From: Promethearchaeota archaeon
GTDB taxonomy: Archaea; Asgardarchaeota; Lokiarchaeia; Sigyniarchaeales; SOKP01
Length of the DNA stretch: 64,000 nucleotides
Assembly (NCBI GenBank): GCA_016840165.1
Contig: JAEOSU010000072.1
Coordinates: 96,001 to 160,000 of the forward strand
Direction: 5' to 3'
A program made the position numbers and the translations under genes. Shown piece after piece: positions 2,483 through 55,890 of the stretch. How positions within the stretch are numbered: position 1 is the stretch's first letter; the number at the start of each line of letters is the position of its first letter. The notes beneath the pieces were generated by a model. It was not told where the DNA came from. It saw only the letters and a list, made by a program, of their open reading frames with translations, and searched no databases.

Positions 2483-2535
2483 ATCATTTAAAAAGAAAAA
2501 GTATGAAAGAAAATTTATTTTTTAATAATTTTACT

Positions 2536-3384: not shown

Positions 3385-3560
3385 CTTATACTTTTATCAC
3401 TATCATTTAGAAATTCATTATGAATTTTTTAAAATGCTAGATAATTAAAATCTTTAGGTTTTTTTTCTTTAAAATTTTATATAGTATCACGTTCTATCAA
3501 AATTTGCTATAATAATCAGATTTTTTAAGAATAAATTAATAGAAAAAAGGTTAACTAGAA

Positions 3561-25994: not shown

Positions 25995-26139
25995 TTTAAA
26001 TCAATAAATTAAAGTAGTATATCTTGAATATTATAACTCTAGTAATTTTAAAAGTTTAAAGGTAAAAAAACTTTATAACTAACAAATTTAATTGATTTTA
26101 AAAAAAATTTAAAAATTTAACAATAAGAGTTTGAAAAAA

Positions 26140-27561
26140 ATGATTAAATTTAGTGATAAGCAATTAAAGATACCAGAAATGAGTAAGCCAGTCTACTTAG
26201 CCACTGTTGGCATGTCAAAATTTGATCGTGCATTTCCAGAAACAAGAACTGAGGAGCTATGTATTCAAGCGTTAACAGCTGCAGCAGATTTTGTGAACAT
26301 GACTCCAGCTGAATTGAAAAGCTTTATTCATACTGCATATTATGGGCATTTTGCGGATCATTTTGGTGATCAATTACTCGGAGAAGCAGTAATACATGAT
26401 AGACTTGGATTGGATCCTTTAGGAACTATTGGTGTTAAAACAGGTGGTGCTACAGGTGGATCAACCATGTGGGAAGCAATTAAAGCAGTAGCTTCTGGGT
26501 ATAGTGACTGTGCTTTGGCTCTAGGCTGGGAACGTATGGATGAGGTTCCTACAGATGAGGGAAATCATCTAATTTCATGCGCTGCTGATAAAGATTGGGA
26601 AACTCCACTTGGTCACATTTATACAGGTTATTATGCAGTTATGGCTCAAAGGTATTGGCAGATATTTGGGAAAGCTGAAGATTCTTTTAGGAAAACTATG
26701 GCTGAAATTGCGGTTAAGAATCGAGGATATGCAAGAATGAATCCACACGCACACGGTCCTATGAAAATAACTGTGGAAGATGTTATTAACTCCCCCGTTG
26801 TAGCATATCCCCTCCGAGCCCTAGATTGTTGTTTAATGAGTGTCGGCTCTGCCTGTGGAATTGTATGTGATGAGAAAACGGCGTATGAAATAACCGATAA
26901 GCCTCTTCGGATTTGGATTGGTGCAGGAAGCCATACTTTAAGAGTTGCTGATCGACGTGATATGAAAATCCCACTTCTACCCAATGAAGAACCGGGTCAA
27001 TATGACGATCTAGGTAAAAAATTTCCAGGCGGAGATAGATATCCTGGATTTAGTAGCTTCTTAGCCGCTCGTATTGCTGCCTACTATGCTTATAATATGA
27101 CAGGGGTAGTGGATCCAAGCGAAGATTTAGATGTAGTTGAACTTCATGATGCATTTACAATAAGTGATATTCAATCATATGAAGATATTGGAATTAGACC
27201 ATATGGACAGGGTAGGGACTATATTGAATCTGGTGATGCCTATGTTATAAATCCAAAGACGAATAAACCTGGAAAATTACCAAGCAATCCATGTGGAGGG
27301 CTTATAGGCTGTATGCATGCTGTGGGTGCTACAGGACTAATGCAAATCGCAGAAATCGGTTATCACATTTGGAATCGATGGGATGAAATTCATGAGCCAG
27401 AAGAAAAATGGAAAGCTTTTGGTCGGGAAAAACCAAAAGATTGGACGAGTTTACAAGTAAAAGGAGCCAAACGTGGATTAGCTATTAGTCATGCGGGAGT
27501 AGGTTCGCATGTTACCTGTACCATTTTAATGGATCCTAATCATTTAATCAAGGAGGATTAA
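26140..27561 (+). CDS. Thiolase-fold (SCP-x type) protein lacking the nucleophilic Cys
   Basis: AVKNR, ELHDAF, NPCGGL, HAVGATG; KTGGATGGS at the usual NACASG site. Confidence 0.88.
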   Translation: MIKFSDKQLKIPEMSKPVYLATVGMSKFDRAFPETRTEELCIQALTAAADFVNMTPAELKSFIHTAYYGHFADHFGDQLLGEAVIHDRLGLDPLGTIGVKTGGATGGSTMWEAIKAVASGYSDCALALGWERMDEVPTDEGNHLISCAADKDWETPLGHIYTGYYAVMAQRYWQIFGKAEDSFRKTMAEIAVKNRGYARMNPHAHGPMKITVEDVINSPVVAYPLRALDCCLMSVGSACGIVCDEKTAYEITDKPLRIWIGAGSHTLRVADRRDMKIPLLPNEEPGQYDDLGKKFPGGDRYPGFSSFLAARIAAYYAYNMTGVVDPSEDLDVVELHDAFTISDIQSYEDIGIRPYGQGRDYIESGDAYVINPKTNKPGKLPSNPCGGLIGCMHAVGATGLMQIAEIGYHIWNRWDEIHEPEEKWKAFGREKPKDWTSLQVKGAKRGLAISHAGVGSHVTCTILMDPNHLIKED

Positions 27562-27566
27562 AAAAA

Positions 27567-28169
27567 ATGCCGAAAACAGAAGAGGAAAAGGGTTTTGTTG
27601 ATATAGTTAATGGAAGGTATAAACCGAGGGGAAAATTTCACATAATAGAGAAAAATCAACCCATAATTAACAAGGACACGGGAAAATTAGCAGGAGTAAC
27701 AAATCCAAGAGATATGACCTATATCCATTCTTACGGTGGTGAAGCTCCATTTTTCGAAGGAATAGGTAAAGGAAAACTTTTAGCAACCCGATGTGATAAT
27801 CCAAAATGTGATAGCAAGGGTTCGATTTTTGAGCCTTTCAGAATTTATTGTCCTGATTGTTTAAGAAAAGCCACTATAGTTGATATCACAGAAAAAGCAC
27901 GTAACACTGCGAAAATTCATTCCTTTATTATTACTCATCGTTCAGGAGCGTTTAATACTCTACCTAAACCTATAAAATTCATTAATGTTGAGTTTGATGA
28001 AGAAGTAGTCACTATTCTGATGAGCGTATTAGTCGTAGGAGAACCAGAGATTGGAAAGAGAGTAGTACCAATTTTTCGAACAAAAGACCCCACCTATACT
28101 ATTATGGACTTAATGTTTGTTCTTGAAGGTACTCCCGAATCAGAACTACCTGAAGGATTCACATTTTAA
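27567..28169 (+). CDS. DUF35 Zn-ribbon/OB-fold acyl-CoA-binding protein
   Basis: CDNPKC...YCPDC, IGKRVVPIF; 5 nt downstream of the thiolase-fold gene. Confidence 0.85.
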   Translation: MPKTEEEKGFVDIVNGRYKPRGKFHIIEKNQPIINKDTGKLAGVTNPRDMTYIHSYGGEAPFFEGIGKGKLLATRCDNPKCDSKGSIFEPFRIYCPDCLRKATIVDITEKARNTAKIHSFIITHRSGAFNTLPKPIKFINVEFDEEVVTILMSVLVVGEPEIGKRVVPIFRTKDPTYTIMDLMFVLEGTPESELPEGFTF

Positions 28170-28257: not shown

Positions 28258-29157
28258 TTAAAGTTCTACATGCTCCTTTTTAAGATGGAAGATTTTTCTT
28301 GCTTCGTCGCCTTGAGCAATTTCCCTTCCTGCAACTTCCGCTACCTTTTTAGCCCATGCTACTTGTTCATAACTTCCTTTTGCTAATTCACCAGATATAA
28401 CACGGGTATTATCTTCTAAACCAACTCGAATATGCCCTCCTAATGCGGCAGCACATAAACCAGCTGAGAATTGTTGTTTGGAAACCCCACAAACGCTCCA
28501 TGTAGCATCTTCAGGTATAAGTTCTAATAATAAGGATAAATTCTTAGGTGAGAACGGAATACCTCCAAGAACACCCCATACAAACTGGAAGTGTAGTGGT
28601 TGAGCAAATGTGCTTTCATCCCGATTGAGGAAAAGCATATTATACAGCCCTCCTAAGTCATATATCTCCATTTCTGGTTTTGTTCTTGCTTTTTTCATTT
28701 CTTTAGCAAACTTCGAAATAGTTTTAAAAGTATTAGCAAAAATATTTCCCGCTCCCATTCCTACTTTTCCAGTTCTATAATCTCCTACAGCAAAATTCAT
28801 AGATGCTGTATTCAAGGAAGCTAATGGGGGTTTAAATGTTTGAACGGGCGCAATTCTTTGCTTATCTGTAGCCACTGAACTAATAGCGCTACTTAAATTA
28901 ATAATCACATCCGGAGCTTTTGATTTAATATTATCTAATACATCTTTAATAAGATCTAATTCATGAGTAGGATTCCCTTTTTCTGGATCTCTTGCATGAA
29001 TATGGACAATCGCAGCACCCGCATCGTAACATTTTTTAGCTTCATCTCCAAATTCTTCTGCTGTATAAGGAACGGAAGGATTATTGGCCTTTGTGGTAAT
29101 TGCACCAGCTAAAGCTGCTGAAATAACCAACTTATTTTCTGGATTTGATTCAGACAT
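28258..29157 (-). CDS. Beta-keto acid cleavage enzyme (DUF849/Kce family)
   Basis: NPSVPYT, AGAAIVHIHARD, KPEMEIYD, GGHIRVGLEDN. Confidence 0.92.
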   Translation of the reverse strand: MSESNPENKLVISAALAGAITTKANNPSVPYTAEEFGDEAKKCYDAGAAIVHIHARDPEKGNPTHELDLIKDVLDNIKSKAPDVIINLSSAISSVATDKQRIAPVQTFKPPLASLNTASMNFAVGDYRTGKVGMGAGNIFANTFKTISKFAKEMKKARTKPEMEIYDLGGLYNMLFLNRDESTFAQPLHFQFVWGVLGGIPFSPKNLSLLLELIPEDATWSVCGVSKQQFSAGLCAAALGGHIRVGLEDNTRVISGELAKGSYEQVAWAKKVAEVAGREIAQGDEARKIFHLKKEHVEL

Positions 29158-29368
29158 GTTTAATTTACACTTTTTAGTATTTAGATTGTTATTCATATAT
29201 GATTATATTAAATTAAAATTGATCATCTTTCTATTTAAATTTTAAAAATTGGGTCTTGTAGAACTTACTTTTTTATACAAACCAAATAAAAACTATTTAT
29301 AGATCAATTATTCAATATAATAATAATTTAAATGAATTTTTAAAAATTAAAAGACATGGAATTCAAAA

Positions 29369-30511
29369 ATGGACAAAGTAGCAATTGTAGGATGTACTCA
29401 GTCGAAATATGAAGCTCAAAAAATCGATTTACCTTATTCAGAACTTGATTTTGAAGTTGTTAAAAAGCTTCATAACGAACTGGGAATAAGTAATGATGAT
29501 GTGGGGTGTGTAATCACAAGTTCCAATGATTTTAACGATGGGAGAACAATAGCTAATATGGCTATTCAAGACGCTGTTGGGGCTGTCAGGAAAGCCGAAT
29601 CTAGAGTTTCTGGCGATGGAGCATTTGCATACATGTATGGAGCCATGAGAATACTCTCTGGAGAATATGATACTGTTCTTGTGGTTTCACATGGTAAATG
29701 TTCTGAGGGGGATCAATGTCTAATAAATAATTCGATATTTGATCCTTTTTACCAACGACATTTAGGATTAGATCAAATTTCTTCTGCGGGATTAATGGCG
29801 AATATGTATATGACTAAATATAATATTACTGAGGAACAGGCTGCTAAGATAGTAGTGAAAAATCGAAAAAATGCTCTCAATAATCCTTATGCCCATCTTC
29901 AGAAAGCAGTGAATTTAAATGAAGTCTTAAAGTCAGAAATGCTCGCTTATCCATTAAAACAGCTAGATTTTCCCCCTTATAGTGATGGAGCAGTTGCGAT
30001 GTTACTTACTAGCGAAAAGATGGCGAAGAAGTTAACTGACACTCCAATATGGTTAAAAGGGTATGCCAGCTGTACTGACAGTTATTATCTTGGACATAGA
30101 ACCATGACAGATCTAATAGGATTAGAGTATGCCGCGAAAGAAGCATATAAAATAGCCGGTATTAAGAATCCAGTTAAAGATTTAGACGTGGCTGAAGTTT
30201 TTGAAGCTTTTTCTGCCCATGAACTCATGATTTATGAAGCATTAGGTTTTTGTGGGAAAGGAGAAGGAGGGAAATATATGGACAGTGGAGAGACAGAGAT
30301 GGATGGGGAAATTCCTGTTAATCCATCGGGAGGAGTGCTATCTAGTAATATAGCAATGGGAAATGGTTTAGTTCGCGTTGCTGAGATCGCTCTACAGCTT
30401 ATGGGGAAGGCTGAAAAACGACAAGTTTCCGACGCAAAAATTGGATTAGCATATGGAATGAATGGGATATGTTCCCAGGGAAATTGTGTATTAATATTTG
30501 GAGGTGCATAA
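29369..30511 (+). CDS. Ltp4-like thiolase-fold protein (aldolase subunit)
   Basis: SSNDFNDGR, AESRVSGDGAFA, RILSGEYDTVLV-HGKCSEG, DQISSAGLMA resemble actinobacterial Ltp4 as recalled; no catalytic Cys/His. Confidence 0.8.
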   Translation: MDKVAIVGCTQSKYEAQKIDLPYSELDFEVVKKLHNELGISNDDVGCVITSSNDFNDGRTIANMAIQDAVGAVRKAESRVSGDGAFAYMYGAMRILSGEYDTVLVVSHGKCSEGDQCLINNSIFDPFYQRHLGLDQISSAGLMANMYMTKYNITEEQAAKIVVKNRKNALNNPYAHLQKAVNLNEVLKSEMLAYPLKQLDFPPYSDGAVAMLLTSEKMAKKLTDTPIWLKGYASCTDSYYLGHRTMTDLIGLEYAAKEAYKIAGIKNPVKDLDVAEVFEAFSAHELMIYEALGFCGKGEGGKYMDSGETEMDGEIPVNPSGGVLSSNIAMGNGLVRVAEIALQLMGKAEKRQVSDAKIGLAYGMNGICSQGNCVLIFGGA

Positions 30512-30514
30512 AAG

Positions 30515-31687
30515 ATGCCGAAACATGATGTAGCAGTCGTAGGAATTGGTCAAACAAAATTTAGAAGTAAAAGACGCGATGTTAACATACCTGAAATGAT
30601 CTACGAAGCAGTTAAGATGGCTTTGGATGACGCACAAATGGAACCAAAGGATATAGATGCAATTTTAATTGGGAATATGGATCATTTTGAAGGAATAAAT
30701 TTCTCTGAGATGTGGTGTGGAATTGATGCAGCACCGGGATATTTAAAACCAGTATTAAAAATTGCGACGGGAGGAACTACAGGATCTTCCCTAGGTATTT
30801 GCGGGTATTATAATATTGCCTCTGGTATCTATAAAAATATTTTAGTTGTAGGATGGGAAAAATTAAACGAAGGAGGAGCTACTACGGGAATAATCACTGC
30901 ATTTGATGCTGTATGGGAGCGTCCTTCATTAGCAGGAGCTTTAGGACCATTAGCGTTAATGGCAAATATGTATGCGGCAAAGTATGGAATTACTTCAGAA
31001 CAAGCAGCAAAAGTGACCGTGAAAAATCGATCAAACGCCGCAAATAATCCTTTTGCACATTTACAAATGCCCGGTATTACCCTTGATTACGTAATGGGAT
31101 CTCAAATGATCTCTTATCCTCTAAGGTTGCACGATTGTTGTCCTCAAAGTGAAGGTGCATGTGCGGTAATTTATGCCAATGAAAAAGAGGCTAAAAAGAT
31201 AACGGATAATCCTGCATGGTTTAAAACAGTTTCAACAGCTCATTATTATACCTTTGGAACTGATGATCTAATGTATGATTTACCTACCGCAACTATTGCT
31301 TCAAAAAAGGCTTACAAGAAGGCAGGCATCAAGGACCCCATTAAGGATCTTGATGTAGCAGAAATTTATGAACCGACTTCATGGTCAGAACTGAGTTGGA
31401 CTGAAGCCTTAGGTTTTGCAGAAGCGGGTGGAGGAGGTAAATTGCTAGATGAGGGGATAACAGCAATGAGCGGTGAGCTACCAGTGAATCCTTCTGGTGG
31501 AGTATTAAGTACTAATCCAATAGGAGCAACTGCTTTAGTACGATTTGCTGAAGCAGCAATACAAGTTATGGGTAAAGGTGGTAAGCGTCAAGTACCAGAT
31601 GTAGAAACATCCCTAGGAATGGGCTTTGGTGGAAGTCTTTGGACGGAGCTTGCAATATTTGGAAAGGATCCTAATCCGGTGAGGTGA
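30515..31687 (+). CDS. Ltp3-like thiolase-fold protein (aldolase subunit)
   Basis: GQTKFRSKRRDV, DHFEG, ATGGTTGSS, GWEK, NPFAHLQ, CPQSEGACAV, AEIYEP, LSTNPIGA resemble Ltp3 as recalled. Confidence 0.82.
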   Translation: MPKHDVAVVGIGQTKFRSKRRDVNIPEMIYEAVKMALDDAQMEPKDIDAILIGNMDHFEGINFSEMWCGIDAAPGYLKPVLKIATGGTTGSSLGICGYYNIASGIYKNILVVGWEKLNEGGATTGIITAFDAVWERPSLAGALGPLALMANMYAAKYGITSEQAAKVTVKNRSNAANNPFAHLQMPGITLDYVMGSQMISYPLRLHDCCPQSEGACAVIYANEKEAKKITDNPAWFKTVSTAHYYTFGTDDLMYDLPTATIASKKAYKKAGIKDPIKDLDVAEIYEPTSWSELSWTEALGFAEAGGGGKLLDEGITAMSGELPVNPSGGVLSTNPIGATALVRFAEAAIQVMGKGGKRQVPDVETSLGMGFGGSLWTELAIFGKDPNPVR

Positions 31688-31692
31688 AAAAA

Positions 31693-32184
31693 ATGGGAAA
31701 AAAAGATAAAGAATTTTTGATTAAATGGAAAACAAACTTACCCTATAAATACTCTATGGGGGAGTTAGCGGTTAAATTTTTCGAGGAACTCAAAGAAAAC
31801 AAGAAAATTATGGGAAGTAAATGCCCCAAATGTGGTAGGGTGCATTTGCCTCCTCGAGCGGTATGTGCAGACTGTCTGGTCAAAATGACGCTCGATGATA
31901 TGGTTGAATTACCTCCAAGGGGCACTTTAGAGGGTTTTACAGTAGTAAATTATCCTTTTATTGATCCAAATACAGGAGGGATGCGCCCATTTCCCTATGG
32001 TTATGGTATATTTAAGTTAGACGGTGCAGATACATATATGATGCATTTCGTAGATGAAACTGATCATACTAAATTTAAAATTGGCCAACGAGTAGAAGCA
32101 GTTTTTAAAGAAGAGAGAGAAGGTAATTTAGGAGATATTCCCTATTTTAAAATTGTTCGAGAAGAAACGGAGGGAGAAAAATGA
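31693..32184 (+). CDS. DUF35 Zn-ribbon/OB-fold protein
   Basis: CPKCGRVHLPPRAVCADC, KLDGADT, GQRVEAVF. Confidence 0.9.
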   Translation: MGKKDKEFLIKWKTNLPYKYSMGELAVKFFEELKENKKIMGSKCPKCGRVHLPPRAVCADCLVKMTLDDMVELPPRGTLEGFTVVNYPFIDPNTGGMRPFPYGYGIFKLDGADTYMMHFVDETDHTKFKIGQRVEAVFKEEREGNLGDIPYFKIVREETEGEK

Positions 32185-32633
32185 GTGATGATATGGAGAA
32201 AAAAGTATTTAAAGGGAGGATTAAAGTCCCTTATAAACATACAGCAGGAGCCTATGTAGAGAAGTTTATAACGGATATTGGGAAAAGTAATAAAATTGTA
32301 GGCGATAAGTGTCCAAATTGTGGTTTAATCTATGTACCTCCTAAAATGATCTGCTTTAAATGCTTTGAAAAGATGGAGGAATGGGTTGAAGTAGGAAATA
32401 AAGGCACTGTTAAAGGATTCACGGTTATTACCCATTCTACCCCAGTTATGCCCTTAGAACCACCATTCGCCTATGCATTGATTACTCTTGACGGATCAAC
32501 CACAGATATAATTCATCTCATCAAAGAAACAGATCCGAAGAAACTTAAAGAGGGGATGAGAGTCGAGGCTGTATTCAAAGAAAAGCCTCGGAAAAGAATC
32601 ACAGATATCGAGTACTTTAAAATAATTGATTAG
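32181..32633 (+). CDS. DUF35 Zn-ribbon/OB-fold protein
   Basis: CPNCGLIYVPPKMICFKC, PFAYALITLDG, GMRVEAVF; ATGA overlap with previous gene. Confidence 0.9.
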   Translation: MSDDMEKKVFKGRIKVPYKHTAGAYVEKFITDIGKSNKIVGDKCPNCGLIYVPPKMICFKCFEKMEEWVEVGNKGTVKGFTVITHSTPVMPLEPPFAYALITLDGSTTDIIHLIKETDPKKLKEGMRVEAVFKEKPRKRITDIEYFKIID

Positions 32634-32650
32634 ATTTGATTATAATATTT

Positions 32651-32672
32651 ATTTTCTTTTTTTTTTGTATTT
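32651..32672 (+). terminator. Oligo-T tract, probable archaeal intrinsic terminator
   Basis: attttcttttttttttgtattt immediately after the stop of the ltp4-ltp3-DUF35-DUF35 operon. Confidence 0.45.
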
Positions 32673-32787
32673 TCTCTAGTTAATGACCAATTGAGGGATT
32701 TTATACCAACTCATCAAAATTAATAAACTATATTTTTAGCTCGATCCTAGTTATAATTATTAAATTAAATATAATATATGAAAAATT

Positions 32788-33612
32788 ATGAGCGATAATG
32801 TAGTTTTAATTGAGGAAAATGAAGATAATACCATCACTACCATCAAATTAAATCGCTTAGACAAAAAAAATGCGATAAATTACGACTTAATGGTTGGATT
32901 TCAAAAAGCCATTGATCAAGTGGAACGATCTAATGCGAGAGTTGTGATTATTACTGGTGGAGATGATCTATTCAGTTCGGGCATTGATTTAAATTTCTTA
33001 ACTGGACAAGAAAGAGATCCAGAAGGAGTAATTCCAGATTTACGAATTCCTCGCAATTTTCGATATTTTGCAAATACATGGATTCATCCTATTTTTACCA
33101 AAATTGAGAAAATGGAAAAGCCTGTAATCGCAAAAATCAATGGCTATTGTTTTGGGATGGCTTTTGAACTCGCGTTAGCATGTGACTTTCGATTTTGTAC
33201 TGAATCAGCTCAATTCCATATGTTAGAAAGCAAGATTGGTATGAATCCAGATGTGGGCGGTTCTATTCGCTTAACACGTATAGTAGGAATTCAAAATGCT
33301 AAAGATATCATTTTAACGGGACGAAGATTCGATGGAGATGAAGCTTATCGGCTGGGAGTGGTTAATCGTGTGGCAAAGACCCATGAGGAATTAGATTCAA
33401 TTATTAAAATGTACACGGATGAGCTAATGACGAGTGGTCCATTAGCCATAGGTCTTGCGAAAAAGTTAATAGATGACTGCTATGGAAAGGATACTGCCTT
33501 GGGATTAGAACTTGAAACCCTTGTTAGCTCTCAGCTACTTCAAACTAAAGACGCAGTTAATGCCGCTTTAGCGCGACTTACTAAAACAAAACCTAAATGG
33601 AAATGGAAATAA
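32788..33612 (+). CDS. Enoyl-CoA hydratase (crotonase) with both catalytic Glu
   Basis: FSSGIDL, KPVIAKINGYCFGMAFELALACDFR, MLESKIG. Confidence 0.9.
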   Translation: MSDNVVLIEENEDNTITTIKLNRLDKKNAINYDLMVGFQKAIDQVERSNARVVIITGGDDLFSSGIDLNFLTGQERDPEGVIPDLRIPRNFRYFANTWIHPIFTKIEKMEKPVIAKINGYCFGMAFELALACDFRFCTESAQFHMLESKIGMNPDVGGSIRLTRIVGIQNAKDIILTGRRFDGDEAYRLGVVNRVAKTHEELDSIIKMYTDELMTSGPLAIGLAKKLIDDCYGKDTALGLELETLVSSQLLQTKDAVNAALARLTKTKPKWKWK

Positions 33613-33668: not shown

Positions 33669-34880
33669 TTAGAAATCTATATTTTTTCCTTCGTAGGCGT
33701 ACCTATAAAGATTTTCGAAATCTGCTTTGGAAGGTAATCGGGGTGCCATAGAGCCACTTGCATCTTGAAAACATAAATTTACTAAAGAGTTAAGATTGTT
33801 TTCTAAATCTTCCTTGGAAATATCAACATCTTGTATTTTTTCGGGAAATCCCACCTTTTTATATAATTCTTTTAGTTTTTCTAGTACAGTCTCCGCGGCT
33901 TTTTGATCATTATCATCCCATTTTGCCCATCCTAGTTGTTTTGCTAATTTAGAATAGATAATTGTAGAGAGATCATCCTTATCAGGATTATTTAAGCAAT
34001 ATTGCGTTACATACTTCAGCATAAGGCCAACACATTTTCCATGAGGCTTTTGAAAGACGGCACCGAGACAATGGCCCATAGTATGACCAAGATGGACGTT
34101 TCCATTGCCAAATGCTAATCCTGCCATCGTAGCTGCTTGATGTAAATTATCTCTGGCTTCTACGTTCGTTCCCTCTTTATATGCAATAGGCAAGAAGCGA
34201 AAAACTAATTCGATTGCTTTGGTGGCTAATGCATTACTGAACTCATTTCTTCCATTAGCAATCAATGCCTCCATCGAATGAGCTAAAACATCCATACCAG
34301 TATCCACAGTCAAGCTAGAGGGCATTCCCATAGGGAAGATCGGATCTAAAATCGAATAACTAGGCACTAATCCCTTATGGGCTTGAATAAGTTTTTGCCA
34401 TACTCCATTATTTTCCCTTGATACGACGGCAGCATATGTTACATCAGCTCCAGTTCCAGAAGTTGTAGGGATTGCGATTAACTTTGCTTTTTTACCAAGT
34501 TCATACAAATCATTATTGAAGATATGTATATCGTCAATTCCATAATTCGGATACTCATACATTACCCATACTCCTTTAGATGTATCTATTACTGAACCGC
34601 CTCCTAAAGCGATGATCAAATCAGGTTCATAAGCTAAACACTTTTCTTTCGCATTTAAAACAATCTGTTCCTTTGGATCGGGTTTAACTTGATTAAATAC
34701 TTCATAAGTTTTTCCAAAGTTATCTAACTTATCCGTCAAAATCTTAAGATAACCAAGATCTTCTATTATTTTATCAGTAACTATAAAACATTTAGTACCC
34801 TTGATGTTTTCTAAAAAGTCTATTGCTTCTTCCCCATATATTATATTTGGACTGTAAAAATACCACATTAATTTTATCAT
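33669..34880 (-). CDS. Iron-containing alcohol dehydrogenase
   Basis: ALGGGSVID, IPTTSGTG, DVLAHSME, HTMGH, PHG. Confidence 0.92.
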   Translation of the reverse strand: MIKLMWYFYSPNIIYGEEAIDFLENIKGTKCFIVTDKIIEDLGYLKILTDKLDNFGKTYEVFNQVKPDPKEQIVLNAKEKCLAYEPDLIIALGGGSVIDTSKGVWVMYEYPNYGIDDIHIFNNDLYELGKKAKLIAIPTTSGTGADVTYAAVVSRENNGVWQKLIQAHKGLVPSYSILDPIFPMGMPSSLTVDTGMDVLAHSMEALIANGRNEFSNALATKAIELVFRFLPIAYKEGTNVEARDNLHQAATMAGLAFGNGNVHLGHTMGHCLGAVFQKPHGKCVGLMLKYVTQYCLNNPDKDDLSTIIYSKLAKQLGWAKWDDNDQKAAETVLEKLKELYKKVGFPEKIQDVDISKEDLENNLNSLVNLCFQDASGSMAPRLPSKADFENLYRYAYEGKNIDF

Positions 34881-34920
34881 CTCCTATTAAAATAGAAAAA
34901 AAGAATAAAATTTCAAATAT

Positions 34921-35331
34921 CTATAAAAATTCTGTATCAACATTTTGTAAACTATTCACAATCTCTTGGGCTGCTCGTGTTGCTCGCATCAATTTAGCCA
35001 TGTTTCCGACAAGTCTTAGCTTTCCAGACATAACACCTTGAATAGTGTCCAATTCTTTCTTAGCAATCTTAACCCAGTTTCCATAAGGACCCGAAAGTGT
35101 AAATTCTGCCTCCGGTTCCTCACCCTCTTCTAATAACTTAACTCCTGTGCACTCACCATGAAAAAGTCCGAGAAGAAAACGTACTTCATGATCTAAAGGA
35201 CCATCAGGCTCTATTACACAAATCATATCCCCTTCCCACCAAGAAGCAGACTCCTTATAAGCGGGATTGTCATTTATGGCTTGTCCAAAGGCATCTAACC
35301 ATTCTGTCGTTAAAATTTTCAATTTATTCAC
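34921..35331 (-). CDS. SCP2 sterol/lipid-binding domain protein
   Basis: EWLDAF, WEGD, LFHGEC, AEFTLSGPYGNW, GVMSGKLRLVGNMAKLMR. Confidence 0.85.
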   Translation of the reverse strand: MNKLKILTTEWLDAFGQAINDNPAYKESASWWEGDMICVIEPDGPLDHEVRFLLGLFHGECTGVKLLEEGEEPEAEFTLSGPYGNWVKIAKKELDTIQGVMSGKLRLVGNMAKLMRATRAAQEIVNSLQNVDTEFL

Positions 35332-35399
35332 CTTATCTATTACTTGAAAGTAATTTTTGTATAATAATTATTCTTAGTTTTTAATGTTTATAAAACCAT

Positions 35400-36587
35400 T
35401 CAAGTGTAGGTTAAATCTAAATGGACGTCAGTTATGGGATATGAGACACAAGGATGAATAAATCCAAAATCATTATCGACTTCTCTTACTGTCACTTCAG
35501 GAGGAACAAACACATTGCCTTTTAAGAGTTTAGTTCTACATAATGCGCACTCTCCAGAACGACAACCATTATCAATAGTAATTTGTGAGTTCTTAAACCC
35601 TTCTATACTATTAAGAAGTGGTTCTACACAATATACTTCAAATTCTTGATTCTCTATCTCTTTTGTTCCGCGAAAAGATACGGTCACCTTTACTTTTTTA
35701 GAAGAATCTATATTACTTGGCCATCCCATTACTTGTGTGATATCCTCAGGAACTCCAAATGCCTCATAATATATTTTGTGTCTAGGTACTCCCATCTCGT
35801 TAAGCTCATTTTCAATGAATTTGTACATCGGTCGATTTCCCACTACATAAAAATATTTATCCTTGAATGATCCAATTTGAGTTATTATTTTATCTTTCGT
35901 TATAAAACCGCATTCTCCCTTCCAATCTGCCGCAGGTTCAGAAAGAATATGAGTAATTGTGATATTCGATCGTCTTGATAGAATTTCTCTTAGTTCTTCG
36001 TTAAATAGTATATCCTTTTCAGTAACACATCCATATAAAAGTATGATCTTAATAGGAACTGCTCTCTCTGTTATGTCTCTCAACATTGAAATAAATGGTG
36101 TTATCCCGCACCCTCCCGCAATGAAAACCAAATTTTTTCCATGGAACAGAGGATTATAATACAGATTACCTAAGGGTTCCGTACTTACAAATATATCCCC
36201 TATTTGAGCATTATGATACAAGAAAGGACTTACAAAACCCCCTTCTTTTTTTCGAATCCCTAGTTCATAATATGCTAATTGATTTGGAGATGATACTAAG
36301 GAATATGGACGGGAGGTTCGAACGCTATTGATATTTACAGTTAAACCAATATATGAGCCCGCTCGAAACGGAGCAAGAGGTTTGTCTGGGTTTGCAGAGA
36401 TAAATCGATATAGTTTAGTGTCATAGGAGAGATCTTTAATATCTGTTAATTTTAATAGTTGGCTTGTTGGATGAATTCTATCACATAATTTTTCAAGTCC
36501 GTCATAATACCAAGGAATAGGTTGATTCTTTTCACGCAATTTTTTCTCTTTCTCAGCTTTCTGGTACTTTTTGATATCTTCCATCAT
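35400..36587 (-). CDS. FAD/NAD(P)-binding oxidoreductase with C-terminal [2Fe-2S] ferredoxin (PaaE/KshB/Hcr-like architecture)
   Basis: RPYSL, GGFVS, AGGCGITP, YEAFG, CRSGECALC...HPC. Confidence 0.88.
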   Translation of the reverse strand: MMEDIKKYQKAEKEKKLREKNQPIPWYYDGLEKLCDRIHPTSQLLKLTDIKDLSYDTKLYRFISANPDKPLAPFRAGSYIGLTVNINSVRTSRPYSLVSSPNQLAYYELGIRKKEGGFVSPFLYHNAQIGDIFVSTEPLGNLYYNPLFHGKNLVFIAGGCGITPFISMLRDITERAVPIKIILLYGCVTEKDILFNEELREILSRRSNITITHILSEPAADWKGECGFITKDKIITQIGSFKDKYFYVVGNRPMYKFIENELNEMGVPRHKIYYEAFGVPEDITQVMGWPSNIDSSKKVKVTVSFRGTKEIENQEFEVYCVEPLLNSIEGFKNSQITIDNGCRSGECALCRTKLLKGNVFVPPEVTVREVDNDFGFIHPCVSYPITDVHLDLTYT

Positions 36588-36590
36588 TTT

Positions 36591-38144
36591 TTACCACCTG
36601 CCCTCTATTTTATCTTTAAGATACATACCCGCAGCAATCCGCCCTCCCAATATAGAAGTAGAAAATCCACCTCCAAAATTAGTCCACGCACCTACTTGAT
36701 ATAAACCGGGAATCGCTCCCCTACTTTTTAGTCTAAGTAATGGCCCATTAGTCACATCTTGAGTAGTCCCATAGATAGCTCCTTCAATGTTCTTAGAATA
36801 ACGATAATAAGTCAAGGGGGTTGCTGCAACCGCCACCTCTATGTAATCTCTTATCTCTGGACAAATAGTACTTTCTATTAAAGAAATCATACTATCCGCA
36901 ATCTCATCTTTTAATTTAAAATATTGATCGGGACTTACACTCTGCCAAAGTTTACCCATTTGAAGTGTAGTTAATACTAGTTGGGTAGTTCCAGGAGGAG
37001 ATATATCTTCATAGATGTGATTGTAACATGCTGCAACAATATATTTAGGTTGTTCTAACTTAAAGAAGGATTCAAAACATCGATTCATATCATAAGATTC
37101 ATTAACAAATGTCTCGTGAGCAGTTAATCCCAGTTTTTTATAAGATGCATTCAATCCAATATATACCGAAAAACCAGAGGGTCCTATTTGGGGAGCATAT
37201 ATAGCTTTTTTATAACTTTCTGGGACAACTTCTGGAGGTAACATTTTCATTGTCGTGCATATTGGATTTACGTTTGAGATCACAGCATTTGATAAGTATA
37301 TGTCCCCATTAAGTAATTCTACACCACAAGTTCTTCCATCTTTCACAAGTATTCTATTAACCAATGCATTATATCTTATTTCACCCCCTCGCTCTTCGAA
37401 AGCTTTTACAATGGCATTGGTAAGTGAATGTGAACGTCCTACAGGAAATGCCGCTCCCCAGTTTAAATAAAATATAAGCATAGCTACGAATGCATATGCA
37501 TTCATTCTGTCAGGAGGAAGTCCGATATACCCCCATAATTGAGACATTAATGAGATTAATTTCTTGTCTGAAAAGAATTTTTCATATAATTCTGCGAGCG
37601 TAAGTCCTGATACCCGTGGAAGCCAAGGATGTTCTTTAAGCACTTCTTGGGGTACAAATTTCCCCCCTTTAGAAGCAATATACTCAATTCCAGCTAACAC
37701 TGCCTTACACATATCCATAAATTCTTCTATCCCCTTCTCTTCCGCAGGAAATAACTCAATTAGTTTATTTTTATACTCTTCAAAACCAAGTGGCATTGTT
37801 TCGTCAAAACCATCCAAATAAACACTTCTATAAAACTCAGGTACTTGTTTAAAGGTCAATTTATCGGGCACAACACCTAGACGCTCAAGATATCGATATA
37901 AAGCCCCTTTATTGTCCTCTGTACCAATATCACTTAATTCATGAAGAGCGCCTTCAAATTCGAATCTACCACGCACAAAAGAAGTCGCAAAACCACCTGG
38001 AACATTGTGTTTTTCAAGTAATAATACTTTTTCTCCCTTTAACACCAATTGCGAAGCTGCTCCTAAACCTCCTAACCCAGCACCGATTACGATAACGGGA
38101 TATTTAGATATAACTCGACTTTCATCAAAATTAACATTAGCCAT
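36591..38144 (-). CDS. Phytoene desaturase (CrtI)/retinol saturase-like FAD oxidoreductase
   Basis: GAGLGGL, EKHNVPGGFATSF.RGRFEFE, ATPLT, GAIYG, IPGLYQVGAW...GGGF. Confidence 0.85.
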   Translation of the reverse strand: MANVNFDESRVISKYPVIVIGAGLGGLGAASQLVLKGEKVLLLEKHNVPGGFATSFVRGRFEFEGALHELSDIGTEDNKGALYRYLERLGVVPDKLTFKQVPEFYRSVYLDGFDETMPLGFEEYKNKLIELFPAEEKGIEEFMDMCKAVLAGIEYIASKGGKFVPQEVLKEHPWLPRVSGLTLAELYEKFFSDKKLISLMSQLWGYIGLPPDRMNAYAFVAMLIFYLNWGAAFPVGRSHSLTNAIVKAFEERGGEIRYNALVNRILVKDGRTCGVELLNGDIYLSNAVISNVNPICTTMKMLPPEVVPESYKKAIYAPQIGPSGFSVYIGLNASYKKLGLTAHETFVNESYDMNRCFESFFKLEQPKYIVAACYNHIYEDISPPGTTQLVLTTLQMGKLWQSVSPDQYFKLKDEIADSMISLIESTICPEIRDYIEVAVAATPLTYYRYSKNIEGAIYGTTQDVTNGPLLRLKSRGAIPGLYQVGAWTNFGGGFSTSILGGRIAAGMYLKDKIEGRW

Positions 38145-41113: not shown

Positions 41114-41485
41114 TTATTTAGATTTCAATGCCACAGTTATAGCTCTAGTTAATCTCACGACATCCATTACCTTTCCTCGCTCCACAGTAATTTGCTCTCG
41201 TGATATTGCGTGAGTAAAGTCACCTTTTCCATTACAAATTCTCACAATTGCCTCGGGATCACCTGTCATTACGATATCGGCATCTAGTTTTGTTCCATTT
41301 GATAATATCCCTTTTCGATCATTTATACTTAAATAAAATGGATCCTCATTACTTAGGTTAAATTGAAAGGACATTTTCCAATTAACATCCTTACCAGCTA
41401 CATTCGTGACAAATACGGCTTGTGCTTTCTCATTTTGATTAACTTTCGTGATAATATTCTCTAAATTCTCTTTGGCTGCACCCAT
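41114..41485 (-). CDS. SCP2 lipid-binding domain protein
   Basis: FQFNL...FYLSI...G...ADIVMTGD...FTHAI...ITV.G SCP2 pattern. Confidence 0.75.
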   Translation of the reverse strand: MGAAKENLENIITKVNQNEKAQAVFVTNVAGKDVNWKMSFQFNLSNEDPFYLSINDRKGILSNGTKLDADIVMTGDPEAIVRICNGKGDFTHAISREQITVERGKVMDVVRLTRAITVALKSK

Positions 41486-41488
41486 TAT

Positions 41489-41983
41489 TTACTTCCCTCC
41501 CTCAAATTCAGGTTTTTTAATCCAATTTTCATATTCATCCTCAGGAACAAAAAAGAAATCCGTCATCTTACCTTCTCTTTCTTGTAAGAACACTGCTTTT
41601 ACTCGTCGTCCTTTTTTGACTTTGGATGGCACTAGATTATCTGAAAATATCCCTTGAAGGAATGAAGTTTCCGCACCATCAAGTTTAATAAAGCCTATTG
41701 CATAAGGAATTGCTTTAATAAAGGCAGAAGTAGTATACCATACTATTGTACTGACTTGTATCGTTCCAGTTTGCTTAAGTTCAATCCATTCTGCCGGAGA
41801 ATAACAATCAGAGCAATTAATACGAGGAGGCATCCAAGTCTTACCACATTTTGTACATTTCGTACCTAATAACTTTTTATTATTCATCACTTCTAAAAAA
41901 AATTTAGATTGACCCCCCATTGTATATTTGTAATTTATTTTTATTACATCTCTTATCTGATGTTCGTGAAATTCTTCATTCAT
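41489..41983 (-). CDS. DUF35 Zn-ribbon/OB-fold protein
   Basis: CTKCGKTWMPPRINCSDC, PYAIGFIKLDG, GRRVKAVF. Confidence 0.9.
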   Translation of the reverse strand: MNEEFHEHQIRDVIKINYKYTMGGQSKFFLEVMNNKKLLGTKCTKCGKTWMPPRINCSDCYSPAEWIELKQTGTIQVSTIVWYTTSAFIKAIPYAIGFIKLDGAETSFLQGIFSDNLVPSKVKKGRRVKAVFLQEREGKMTDFFFVPEDEYENWIKKPEFEGGK

Positions 41984-41985
41984 AA

Positions 41986-43239
41986 TTATAGCACTCCCTC
42001 CTCATTAGCCATTACAATAATAGCCGCATAAGCAGCTCCCGGACCGCCAATTGAATGGGAAATAGCTCGCCCTTTATTGATTGTCACTTGATGTTTTCCT
42101 GCCTCTCCTCGTAATTGGAGGGCAGCTTCACCAGTACTCATAATTCCTGTAGCACCCACAGCATGGCCACATCCAATTAAACCTCCCGATGGACAACAAG
42201 GTAATTCACCTTCAATCCAGGGTCCTTCTCCTGGTTTTTCAAATGAGTTTTCAATCCAAGGTCCTCCTTCTCCAAATGGTACAAAACCTAGCTCTTCATA
42301 CGAGATTACTTCTTGACCGCTGAAAGCATCATGTAGCTCGGCTAGATCTATTTGTTTTTTAATGTTATTATAGTCTAAGCCAGCCATTTTATATGCCACT
42401 TTTGCAGCATAAATATTAGAATATAAACGGCCCATGTCTTCTCTATTTCCTATGAAACAATCAGTATTAGCAGCTCCTACGCCAGTAATCCAAATTGGAT
42501 TTTCAACCCCTAATTCCTTTACCTTCTCTTTATTTGCTAAAATTAAGGCCGCAGATGCTTCTGAATACAAACAACAATCTAACATCTTGAAAGGGTAACA
42601 GATAATACGAGAATTCATAACATCTTCTACCGTTATCTTCATGGGAGATTGGGCTTTTGGATTAAGCATTGCATTTCCATGGTTTTTCACTCCTACGAAA
42701 GCCATCTGCTCTTCAGTAGGGTTTCCAAATTCTTCATAATGTGCGTTAACCATTGATACATACGAGGAGGCAGCCATCATTCCCATTGGATATTCATAAG
42801 TCATATCTGCAGAATAAGCAATGGCATTAAGCACTTCTGGGGTCGTTGTTCCTGTTTGTTCGTCATAACAATCATTACATTTTTCAAGTCCAATGCATAA
42901 ACATAAATCAGAAATTCCCGATGCCACCTCAGCATAAGCCATTCGGACAGTATAACCTCCAGTAGCTCCTCCTGTAGCCACTCTCGTTCCTGGTTTATTA
43001 TTCATTCCCAGATATGAATTGGTAAAAATATCTGGCATAAATTGACGCTCAAAAAGCTCATTATATATACCATACACCGTCGATTGAAGATCTTTATGAG
43101 TGATGTGGGCACCATTTTTATTTGCATCTTCTAAGGCTAATTTGGTCGCATCATAGGCAAGTTCAAAGTATGTTTTATCTAAATACCGTGCTCTAAAAGG
43201 TGTTATTCCAACACCAATTATCGCTACTTCTTTAGGCAT
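41986..43239 (-). CDS. Thiolase-fold (SCP-x type) protein lacking the nucleophilic Cys
   Basis: RVATGGATGG, VKNH, ELHDAF, PSGGLIGCGHAVGATG. Confidence 0.88.
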   Translation of the reverse strand: MPKEVAIIGVGITPFRARYLDKTYFELAYDATKLALEDANKNGAHITHKDLQSTVYGIYNELFERQFMPDIFTNSYLGMNNKPGTRVATGGATGGYTVRMAYAEVASGISDLCLCIGLEKCNDCYDEQTGTTTPEVLNAIAYSADMTYEYPMGMMAASSYVSMVNAHYEEFGNPTEEQMAFVGVKNHGNAMLNPKAQSPMKITVEDVMNSRIICYPFKMLDCCLYSEASAALILANKEKVKELGVENPIWITGVGAANTDCFIGNREDMGRLYSNIYAAKVAYKMAGLDYNNIKKQIDLAELHDAFSGQEVISYEELGFVPFGEGGPWIENSFEKPGEGPWIEGELPCCPSGGLIGCGHAVGATGIMSTGEAALQLRGEAGKHQVTINKGRAISHSIGGPGAAYAAIIVMANEEGVL

Positions 43240-53902: not shown

Positions 53903-54439
53903 ATGGCAAGACCTTATCAAAAAGCAAATATCCCTGGACCCGAAATGGGAACTAGCGTTTATGAACCAAAAGTTATGGCGACTTTATTGAAATCCCCAAA
54001 ACGAAAAGTCTTTATCATCGGTTCCGAATCACTTGATAAAAACTTTCATATTGATGGAAAACCCGTAGCTGACTATTTTGTCGAAATTGCTAAAAAACTA
54101 CAATGTCACGTTGTCGCAACCGGTCATATTTACAAGTTCTTGGTTGATAAAGTCGATGCAGATAAACTATGGGATATGTCTTTAATCAACATTACGGGAA
54201 GATTAGTTGATAAAGATTGGAAAGGTTTAGATGGAAAAGGACAATATAATATGGCCATTTTTGGTGGGCATCAAGTGTTCTATGTTTCACAAACCCTCAG
54301 CCGTATTAAAAATTTTTCGAATTGGGTTAAGACTATAGAACTCGACAAGTATTCACATCCAAATGCTCGTTTTAGCCTGCCAAATCTAAGCAACGACGAT
54401 TGGAAACAATTTTTAGAAGAACTAATAAAATTATTATAA
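53903..54439 (+). CDS. cdhB: CO dehydrogenase/acetyl-CoA synthase epsilon subunit
   Basis: ANIPGP, DKDWKGLDGKGQYN, YVSQTLSRIKNF, DKYSHPNARFSLPN. Confidence 0.9.
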   Translation: MARPYQKANIPGPEMGTSVYEPKVMATLLKSPKRKVFIIGSESLDKNFHIDGKPVADYFVEIAKKLQCHVVATGHIYKFLVDKVDADKLWDMSLINITGRLVDKDWKGLDGKGQYNMAIFGGHQVFYVSQTLSRIKNFSNWVKTIELDKYSHPNARFSLPNLSNDDWKQFLEELIKLL

Positions 54440-54480
54440 GAATTAATTTAAATAATCAAAAATAAGAGGAAAAATGAAAT

Positions 54481-55890
54481 ATGAGTTTTAGCGATATCCC
54501 CGTAGATGTGGGACCTGTATATGAAGGTGAACGTATACGAGCAAAACAAATGTATGTTGAACTTGGTGGTCCTAAAATTGAAAAGCATTTTGAGCTCGTA
54601 AGGGTCAAACAACCCAAAGAAATTAAGGATGGGCAAGTCACAATTTACGGTCCTGATTTAAAAGACATGAAAGAGGGAGAACGATACCCAATAGGCATTT
54701 TAGTCGAGGTCGCTGGAGAAGAACTCGAGGAAGATCTTGAGGCTGTTTTTGAGCGTAGAGTCCATGAATTCTGCAATTTCGTAAATGGAATCATGCATCT
54801 TAATCAACGCTATACTAATTGGATAAGACTATCCAAAGCGGCATACGAAAAAGGTTTTAATACCTTAGATCTACTCGGAAAAGTCTTAATTCGATTATAT
54901 AAAGCGGAATTACCTATTATTAAACAAGCACAAGTCACATTCTACACTGATCCGAAAGATATTGAGAAACCTTATGATATGGCAATGGAAATCTATAATA
55001 AACGAGATGAGCGAGCACGAACGATTCATGATGAAGATGTAGACATGTTCTATGGATGTGTGTTATGCCAATCATTTGCTCCAACACATGCATGTTGTAT
55101 AACCCCAGACAGGACTTCATTATGCGGCTCTATTAACTGGTTTGATGCAAGAGCAGCAGCGAAGGTAGATCCAAAGGGACCAATCTATGAAGTTCCGCCA
55201 AAGGAATGTTTAGATGAATTAGCTGGAGAATATACTGGTGTTAATGAAATGATTAAAAAACGTTCTCTCGGTGAGATTGATAGAATCTTTCTTTATAGTG
55301 GAATGGAATTTCCGCACACTTCATGTGGTTGCTTCGAGGCTATTGATTTTTATATTCCTGAGGTAAATGGACATGGAATTGTTGACCGAAATTACGGTAG
55401 TGTGGCGATCAACGGTCTTCCTTTTAGTGCTATGGCAAATCAGACTGGGGGAGGCAAACAAATGCCCGGATTCAATGGAGTTAGTATCCAATATATCGTT
55501 AGTCCGAAGTATCAACAATATGATGGTGGCATTGAGACTATTGTATGGATGCCAAAAGCCGTAAAAGACCGCGTTGGAGATTTTCTTCCTCAAGATTTGG
55601 TGGGAAAGATAGCGACCGAAGAAGAGGTTCAGGACCTTGCTCAATTAAAAGAATATTTACAGGAAGTAAATCATCCAATCGTAGAAACCTGGGCAGAGAT
55701 GTTAGAAGAAGAGGAGGAAGAAGAAGAATACGAAGCTGAAGGTGCTATGGTTCCTATGGGTACAGTTGGAATGACGATTCCTGGCGCTGGTGGAGTTGGT
55801 GGCTTTAAAATAATCTTAAAGAACTGTAAAGTTCATGCCGAGGCAATAATCATCAAAAAGATTGACTCTAAAGGTAAGCGTAAAAAGTAA
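54481..55890 (+). CDS. cdhC: Acetyl-CoA synthase beta subunit
   Basis: YEGERIR, ERRVH, CVLCQSFAP, CGSINW, HTSCGCFE A-cluster ligands; acidic linker and KIILKN C-terminal domain. Confidence 0.97.
   Translation: MSFSDIPVDVGPVYEGERIRAKQMYVELGGPKIEKHFELVRVKQPKEIKDGQVTIYGPDLKDMKEGERYPIGILVEVAGEELEEDLEAVFERRVHEFCNFVNGIMHLNQRYTNWIRLSKAAYEKGFNTLDLLGKVLIRLYKAELPIIKQAQVTFYTDPKDIEKPYDMAMEIYNKRDERARTIHDEDVDMFYGCVLCQSFAPTHACCITPDRTSLCGSINWFDARAAAKVDPKGPIYEVPPKECLDELAGEYTGVNEMIKKRSLGEIDRIFLYSGMEFPHTSCGCFEAIDFYIPEVNGHGIVDRNYGSVAINGLPFSAMANQTGGGKQMPGFNGVSIQYIVSPKYQQYDGGIETIVWMPKAVKDRVGDFLPQDLVGKIATEEEVQDLAQLKEYLQEVNHPIVETWAEMLEEEEEEEEYEAEGAMVPMGTVGMTIPGAGGVGGFKIILKNCKVHAEAIIIKKIDSKGKRKK

Follow-up and report, generated by a model that had tools for sequence, protein, structure and literature searches.

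A window of 64,000 nucleotides from the genome of a Promethearchaeota archaeon (GenBank assembly GCA_016840165.1, contig JAEOSU010000072.1, positions 96,001 to 160,000 of the forward strand) carries a compact four-gene module that resembles the Ltp3/Ltp4 system of actinobacteria and may encode a heteromeric lyase acting on acyl-CoA. Here, we describe this module, its relatives and the chemistry that its sequences suggest; "window" means this whole stretch, and positions refer to it unless another contig is named. The first two genes, both on the plus strand, encode paralogous subunits of the SCP2-thiolase fold with the Pfam domains Thiolase_N and Thiolase_C_1: A, which is Ltp4-like (29369..30511, 380 aa), and B, which is Ltp3-like (30515..31687, 390 aa). 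They are followed on the same strand by the genes for two distinct DUF35 proteins, D1 (31684..32184) and D2 (32181..32633), both of which match Pfam zf-ChsH2 and OB_ChsH2_C. Each thus combines a zinc ribbon, canonical in spacing (C-x2-C-x10-C-x2-C), with an OB fold.

The four genes are tightly packed. The stop codon of A (TAA) is separated from the ATG of B by a gap of 3 nt, and GGAGGTG lies upstream of B. The stop codon of B (TGA) overlaps by 4 nt (GTGA) a GTG at 31684. Translation of D1 could begin at this GTG but more probably begins at the ATG at 31693, upstream of which lies GGTGAGGTG. Between D1 and D2 the overlap is again 4 nt (ATGA). Past the stop codon of D2 there is a T-rich run (32650..32676, plus strand), possibly an archaeal terminator; a scan for sigma-70 promoters and intrinsic terminators, which is not applicable to archaea, gave counts at the level of shuffled sequence. 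A crotonase-type enoyl-CoA hydratase (32788..33612, plus strand; Pfam ECH_1) starts 154 nt 3′ of D2, the gap holding the T-rich run and an AT-rich, TATA-like stretch. Its alignment to 5ZAI reveals both catalytic Glu residues (ELALACD and LESKIG). On the other side of the module, a gene for a beta-keto-acid cleavage enzyme (BKACE; 28258..29196, minus strand; Pfam BKACE, 297 bits) is divergent from A. The original prediction, made from the letters of the DNA, had seen here a translationally coupled operon followed by a two-Glu hydratase. The four genes do lie at the positions and with the spacing it gave, and the hydratase does keep its two Glu residues, but at this distance it is uncoupled from the rest.

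Can A and B act as thiolases? Both were aligned to the canonical Cys/His/His thiolases of their own genome and of an actinobacterium. The site of the nucleophilic Cys is occupied by Gly in B (TGGTTG), as it is in Ltp3, and falls in a loop deletion in A; an Ltp4-type loop, x-D-G/A-A-x-A, is common to A (x-D-G-A-x-A) and Ltp4. The His of the HDCF motif is replaced by Tyr in B (EIYEPT) and in Ltp3 (EIYVP; Tyr-x-Pro), and by Phe in A (EVFEAF). The His of the GHP motif is replaced by Asn in both A (SS-NIAM) and B (S-TNPIG), where one residue has also been deleted, and Asn-Pro-Ile-Gly together with this deletion is common to B and Ltp3. The active-site signature of the Ltp3 type (Gly, Tyr-x-Pro, and deletion plus Asn) is fully present in B. 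The thiolase triad (Cys, HDCF His/Cys and GHP His), which is present in a thiolase of the same genome (C30:258856-260121), is absent from A and B alike. Since the Cys and both His residues are gone, the A/B unit is capable of neither thiolysis nor Claisen condensation via an acyl-enzyme. That the Cys and the His pair are missing, and that B has Tyr (EIYEP) and Asn instead, had already been read correctly in the original prediction; the likeness to the Ltp3/Ltp4 motifs that it noted also turns out to be real, extending to alignment signatures and indels.

The residues that replace the triad behave differently in the two subunits. Of 35 B-type sequences, all have Asn334, 34 have Tyr285 and 33 have His182, and the near-invariance of these residues over so diverse a set argues for catalysis in B. 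Across 39 A-type proteins the column equivalent to the Tyr is variable (S/Y/C/H/T/F), and the Asn at the GHP site is kept in 25. Identity between orthologues is 76–83% for A and 73–91% for B, and A is the faster-evolving subunit. B is therefore the probable catalytic subunit, with Tyr285, Asn334 and His182 as putative active-site residues, and A, with its degenerate active site, is probably a non-catalytic partner.

In Mycobacterium tuberculosis the published gene layout is Rv3515c (fadD19), Rv3516 (echA19), Rv3521, Rv3522 (ltp4), Rv3523 (ltp3) and Rv3540c (ltp2) (PMC6429209). Ltp3-Ltp4, which belongs to the catabolism of C24-branched sterol side chains, has been termed a heteromeric aldol-lyase (PMC6678751). 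As actinobacterial references, two genomes (G001 and G003) were used, one a Dietzia metagenome-assembled genome (MAG) and the other an uncultured Actinomycetota, in which Ltp4 and Ltp3 were recognized not from record names but from synteny like that of Rv3521-23 and from passing the NCBIfam cut-offs, 514 bits for NF006180 (PRK08313, the Ltp3 model) and 419 bits for NF005924 (PRK07937, the Ltp4 model). Both have the NF005924 gene (653 and 481 bits) directly upstream of the NF006180 gene (764 and 665 bits). At the one locus that was translated, that of G003, a tandem-DUF35 gene of 343 aa stands directly upstream of the Ltp4-Ltp3 pair. A divergent crotonase/CoA-ligase pair lies 3–4 kb off at the reference loci, and the gene matching the Ltp2-type model NF005892 is located elsewhere.

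On these models the archaeal subunits fall between the orthologues and the other paralogues of the references. B scores 375 bits on NF006180, the actinobacterial orthologues 665–764 and their other paralogues at most 160; A scores 188–192 bits on NF005924, the orthologues 481–653 and the other paralogues at most 75. B and Ltp3 are reciprocal best hits: B finds Ltp3 with 281 and 255 bits in G003 and G001, the next match having 122 bits, and Ltp3 finds B with 284 and 259 bits. The top match of Ltp4 in the genome of the window is A or its paralogue c4A (131 and 79 bits).

A tree of 52 proteins (IQ-TREE, LG+C20 PMSF) unites the A-type and B-type proteins in a superclade with full support (100/100), outside which fall Ltp2, the canonical SCP2 thiolases and the other thiolase-fold genes of the window; Ltp2 is placed among the canonical thiolases. 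Within the superclade, A, its paralogue and Ltp4 form one clade (96/94), and B, its paralogue and Ltp3 form another (94/87). Forcing Ltp3 and Ltp4 into a single clade costs 104 log-likelihood units and is rejected by the approximately unbiased (AU) test (p = 2e-14), the constraint group having been chosen after inspection of the tree. This rejection implies that the duplication giving A and B is older than the split between the actinobacterial and Asgard sequences. A and B thus appear to be true relatives of Ltp4 and Ltp3, in two matching paralogous lineages, and the tree indicates that they have been inherited, or have moved, as a pair since the duplication. The parts are also alike: as with Rv3523, Rv3522 and Rv3521, and with ltp3/ltp4 of Rhodococcus rhodochrous, there is a Cys-less paralogue pair, Ltp4-type first and Ltp3-type second, accompanied by two DUF35 domains, and a crotonase and a CoA ligase are found nearby in both. 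B is 40–43% identical to Ltp3 and A about 33% identical to Ltp4.

Source annotations give B another name, "acetyl-CoA C-acetyltransferase", and the module could accordingly be taken for an ordinary archaeal pair of ketothiolase and DUF35 protein, performing Claisen condensation in CoA-dependent fatty-acid synthesis, like Saci_1121/1120, or thiolysis in beta-oxidation. Asgard archaea commonly carry pairs of ketothiolase and DUF35 genes, 3.8 of them per genome, for which a preprint (10.1101/2024.07.05.601840) proposes a role in fatty-acid synthesis. Such a role would suit the cluster around the module, where there are CoA ligases, crotonases, an acyl-CoA dehydrogenase (ACAD) and a FabK-like reductase. 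However, the residues that this chemistry requires are lost from A and B family-wide, and in the tree the clade of both subunits is separate from the Cys-bearing thiolases that this genome encodes. Saci_1121/1120 and the complex of acetoacetyl-CoA thiolase, HMG-CoA synthase and DUF35 protein (6ESQ) do share with the module the fold (TM 0.91), a DUF35 partner and an archaeal origin, but they are true Cys/His/His thiolases, homodimeric and with one type of DUF35. We consider a ketothiolase most unlikely here. The point reaches beyond this locus: the nucleophilic Cys is kept in only two of the nine SCP2-type thiolase-fold genes of the genome and absent from the other seven, so that counts of Asgard ketothiolase/DUF35 pairs as condensing enzymes need tempering. 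One of the Cys-bearing SCP2-type thiolases (G000:C103:31541-32808, plus strand) is split over two frames at about 31882, which could be a frameshift, a sequencing error or a pseudogene.

For B, AlphaFold predicts the SCP2-thiolase fold (pLDDT 88). The nearest solved structures are ST0096 of Sulfolobus tokodaii (4YZO), the archaeal thiolase of the HMG-CoA synthase/DUF35 complex (TM 0.91), BbsB, Ltp2, PhlC and Sal. All of these neighbours that are known in complexes (archaeal thiolase, BbsB, Ltp2, PhlC and Sal) have a DUF35 partner (6ESQ, 7PXP, 6OK1, 9MYR, 5M3K). ST0096 is the top match in the Protein Data Bank for both A and B (158–161 bits, 30% identity); it lacks the Cys as they do, but unlike them it retains both His residues, in the HD and GHP motifs.

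Which reaction, then, could B catalyze? Tyr285 shares an alignment column with the Tyr of the LYDHF motif of Ltp2. In TcLtp2 (YDHF) and CtSal (YDCY), retro-aldolases of steroid side chains, a Tyr at the position of the HDCF His is the catalytic base (PMC12329534), and its counterpart in B makes retro-aldol cleavage the most likely reaction. The complexes TcLtp2-ChsH2 (6OK1) and CtSal-Shy (9MYR) resemble the module in further respects: they have a Cys-less SCP2-thiolase fold and a DUF35 partner, and they act after a hydratase, as is proposed here. They differ in that TcLtp2 and CtSal are homodimers with two identical DUF35 domains fused to a MaoC hydratase, and in that they belong to different clades, B scoring only 72–84 bits against them.

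The fold also serves other chemistry, or none. The module might be a Friedel-Crafts or other acyltransferase like PhlABC or MucABC, a decarboxylase like TbSLP, or a structural or lipid-binding scaffold. PhlC, MucABC and TbSLP are among the structural neighbours, two thiolase-fold proteins are combined with DUF35 in PhlC and MucABC as in the module, and A is clearly degenerate. On the other hand, acyltransferases of the PhlC type use a Cys (a C88S variant is listed), which B lacks; the Tyr, Asn and His of B are near-invariant, and the recurrent crotonase and BKACE neighbours fit the chemistry of hydroxyacyl-CoA. These alternatives together seem to us unlikely, if less so than a ketothiolase.

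Taken together, this comparative evidence favours, with a probability of about 0.6, a heteromeric lyase of the Ltp3/Ltp4 type that would use a Tyr-based retro-aldol reaction to cleave a 3-hydroxyacyl-CoA. An outline of the proposed process is as follows: A and B would form a heterodimer of SCP2-thiolase-fold paralogues in which B contributes the conserved non-thiolase active site and A has a structural role, and the zinc-ribbon/OB proteins D1 and D2 would each cap one subunit. The neighbouring crotonase would make the 3-hydroxyacyl-CoA substrate, and retro-aldol cleavage would then give either acetyl-CoA or propionyl-CoA, together with an aldehyde or ketone. In this way the unit could get round a branch or a tertiary alcohol by which normal beta-oxidation is blocked. 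The substrate is probably not a sterol.

Several observations weigh against this proposal. The scores of both subunits are below the curated cut-offs (375 bits against 514 for B and Ltp3; 188–192 bits against 419 for A and Ltp4), and among actinobacterial proteins A matches Ltp3 best (171 bits) and Ltp4 less well (122 bits). The original prediction had counted on a grouping with Ltp3/Ltp4, which holds in the tree and in the reciprocal best hits of B and Ltp3 and is weakened by these scores. The second aldolase residue is not kept in B, Tyr344 of Ltp2 corresponding to Asn and Cys304 of Sal to Pro. The aldol-lyase role of Ltp3/Ltp4 itself comes from gene deletions alone (Wilbrink, 2012, as cited; PMC6678751). 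The hydratase is not co-translated with the four-gene unit, probably belongs to a separate transcript and is sited elsewhere in some relatives. In addition, the genome of the window (99.7% complete) has no match to the carboxyltransferase family PF01039.

The DUF35 partners add a structural hint. In two genomes of the same family, D1 and D2 are naturally fused in one gene (L068 8353-9351, minus strand, 332 aa; L081 8255-9214, minus strand, 319 aa), whose halves are 71–73% identical to D1 and 81% identical to D2 and whose architecture is that of Rv3521. The suggestion that a double DUF35 gene had been split into two is borne out by these fused forms. D1-type and D2-type proteins constitute separate clades, and both lineages are kept per module. 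At one closely related locus with the order D-A-B-D, the DUF35 gene on the side of B is of the D1 type and that on the side of A is of the D2 type; this arrangement hints that each DUF35 protein may serve one subunit. D1 and D2 match the halves of the actinobacterial tandem DUF35 protein with 69–78 bits either way, and the mapping is ambiguous. The Asgard genes are split and downstream of the thiolase-fold pair where the actinobacterial gene is fused and upstream, and the Asgard proteins keep the four zinc Cys residues, which are missing from the actinobacterial tandem protein examined.

The module is widespread. A matches 508 cluster representatives (50% identity) at E ≤ 1e-30, and the MAGs that hold homologues of B with 85–97% identity bear the names Promethearchaeota, Hodarchaeota or Lokiarchaeota. 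In each of the 30 copies of the module that were inspected, at 29 loci of Asgard archaea and a high-GC bacterial phylum, the A-B pair is combined with DUF35 genes. This includes 16 of 16 Asgard loci, where the orders A-B-D1-D2, D-A-B-D, A-B-D and A-B-fused DD occur. Of 201 genomes of the bacterial phylum, 22 encode a B-type protein; the ten short bacterial loci all read DUF35-A-B or A-B-D, and the order is the same in the four that were extended to 20 kb. At one bacterial locus (L104 7441-13940; G187:C10, 75% GC), genes for an ACAD, A, B, a DUF35 protein, two enoyl-CoA hydratases and a BKACE follow one another on one strand.

Multiple copies per genome are also found. The genome of the window has a second, divergent module, DUF35-A′-B′-DUF35 (G000:C4:28517-31913; L043 6517-9913, minus strand); a Hodarchaeota-type contig (G148:C6) has three within 15 kb (L069 3982-15484), in the order A-B-D-D, D-A-B-D on the opposite strand, BKACE and A-B-D1-D2; and the genomes of family f19 have at least five A-B pairs each. 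The original prediction had called the locus the best candidate here for an undescribed system, which overstates the case for a module that is multi-copy in its own genome and widespread in Asgard archaea and bacteria. It is real, ordinary in distribution and biochemically unstudied, and it belongs to the Ltp3/Ltp4 kind. The C4 copy lies beside genes for an alpha-amylase and a nitroreductase, and neither a hydratase nor a BKACE adjoins it.

The module of the window lies in an acyl-CoA cluster (24.6–47 kb), much of which is syntenic in genomes of the same family. The cluster comprises an ACAD, the BKACE, two crotonases, two long-chain-type CoA ligases, a FabK-like reductase, an Fe-alcohol dehydrogenase, a CrtI-family flavoprotein beside an FNR-[2Fe-2S] reductase, SCP2 proteins and two further Cys-less thiolase-fold genes with DUF35-like or SCP2 partners. 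The matches of its ACAD, CoA ligases, crotonases and FabK-like gene in NCBIfam are generic and below cut-off, and give no clue to the substrate. In 9 of the 16 Asgard loci a BKACE gene lies no more than about 4 kb from the module, and L104 has one in the same-strand run; the genome of the window has only five such genes. From this recurrence we infer a functional link between BKACE and the module. A crotonase adjoins the module in L070, L076, L078 and L068/L081 and in the bacterial L094/L104.

In the sterol C24 route, carboxylation precedes hydration and aldol cleavage (PMC6678751). With no PF01039 protein, a route of carboxylation, hydration and lyase action, whether of the sterol or of the Atu type, is not available in the genome of the window, and a literal pathway of either type is, on gene content, unlikely there. 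The same absence weakens another candidate that was considered, a lyase producing a beta-keto acid for BKACE from a carboxylated intermediate resembling HMG-CoA.

It also bears on whether the module and Ltp3/Ltp4 are functional orthologues in the strict sense, the module removing the C24 branch from phytosterol-like side chains once carboxylation at C28 and hydration have taken place. The parts and their order are as in Rv3521-ltp4-ltp3, B and Ltp3 are reciprocal best hits, the neighbouring crotonase and CoA ligases have counterparts in echA19 and fadD19, and genes with the SCP2 "sterol carrier" domain are nearby. Against this stand the lack of PF01039 in the genome (sterol-ring genes were not searched for), the scores of A and B under the family cut-offs, and the copy numbers just given, two modules in this genome, three per 15 kb in G148 and at least five per f19 genome, which point to many substrates. 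Moreover, the context of Wood-Ljungdahl genes indicates an anaerobe. An anaerobic archaeal host without the carboxyltransferase, a BKACE neighbour and a multi-copy module are all unlike the Ltp3/Ltp4 setting, and strict orthologous function appears to us hardly credible, the least probable of the readings weighed here.

If the module is instead a lyase of the Ltp3/Ltp4 type with other substrates, what would it be for? One speculative answer, which we regard as rather doubtful, is that module, crotonase and BKACE might be the central enzymes of an undescribed route, independent of oxygen and of carboxylases, by which Asgard archaea and many anaerobic bacteria would shorten acyl chains that are branched (isoprenoid-like) or otherwise resistant to beta-oxidation, and that most Asgard "ketothiolase/DUF35 pairs" might be lyases. 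Hydration would come first, retro-aldol cleavage would then release acetyl-CoA or propionyl-CoA, and a BKACE-type enzyme would deal with the keto product.

A search of the papers available found none on archaeal modules of the Ltp3/Ltp4 type. For this window, the present analysis contributes the tree with its AU test, the fusion of D1 and D2 that occurs naturally in close relatives, the distinction of two DUF35 lineages, the observation that BKACE and crotonase genes recur beside the module as far as the bacterial phylum, and the missing carboxyltransferase. Database records label proteins of the A and B types acetyl-CoA acetyltransferase, at odds with their inability to be thiolases, and the only members of this large family to have been studied are Ltp3 and Ltp4, by knock-outs. 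The question bears on the proposal that ketothiolase/DUF35 pairs take part in fatty-acid synthesis in Asgard archaea, and hence on lipid metabolism at the origin of eukaryotes. With its zinc ribbons intact and its DUF35 genes naturally split or fused, the compact archaeal module is a convenient target for a first biochemical and structural study.

Some other genes of the window deserve mention. At 41114-43239 (minus strand), a three-gene operon encodes a 417-aa thiolase-fold protein, a DUF35 protein and an SCP2 protein; the first has Gly at the Cys site, retains HDAF and GH-A-VG, and represents a different Cys-less type outside the A/B clade. At 26131-28169 (plus strand), a gene for a 476-aa thiolase-fold protein, Cys-less and with both His residues retained, is followed 5 nt later by that for a 200-aa protein with no match in Pfam or NCBIfam; the pair is kept in L070 and L080. 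The block at 33669-38144 (minus strand) encodes a flavoprotein of the CrtI/carotenoid-isomerase family, an FNR-type FAD/NAD/[2Fe-2S] reductase, an SCP2 protein and an Fe-alcohol dehydrogenase; it adjoins the module in L068 and L081, L070 has its CrtI and FNR genes only, and no oxygenase partner was seen.

Farther from the module, at 1577-4472 and 53903-55890, there are genes for a small GTPase of the Gtr1/RagA family, methylene-tetrahydromethanopterin (H4MPT) dehydrogenase, formylmethanofuran:H4MPT formyltransferase, and the epsilon and beta subunits of carbon monoxide dehydrogenase/acetyl-CoA synthase, a gene content that fits an anaerobic Asgard host using the Wood-Ljungdahl pathway. Finally, IS6110 primer sequence was encountered on tiny low-coverage contigs of unrelated assemblies (Bacillus, Streptomyces, Metamycoplasma, Draconibacterium and others; L017-L032), and these small contigs look like contamination of public assemblies with DNA of the M. 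tuberculosis complex.

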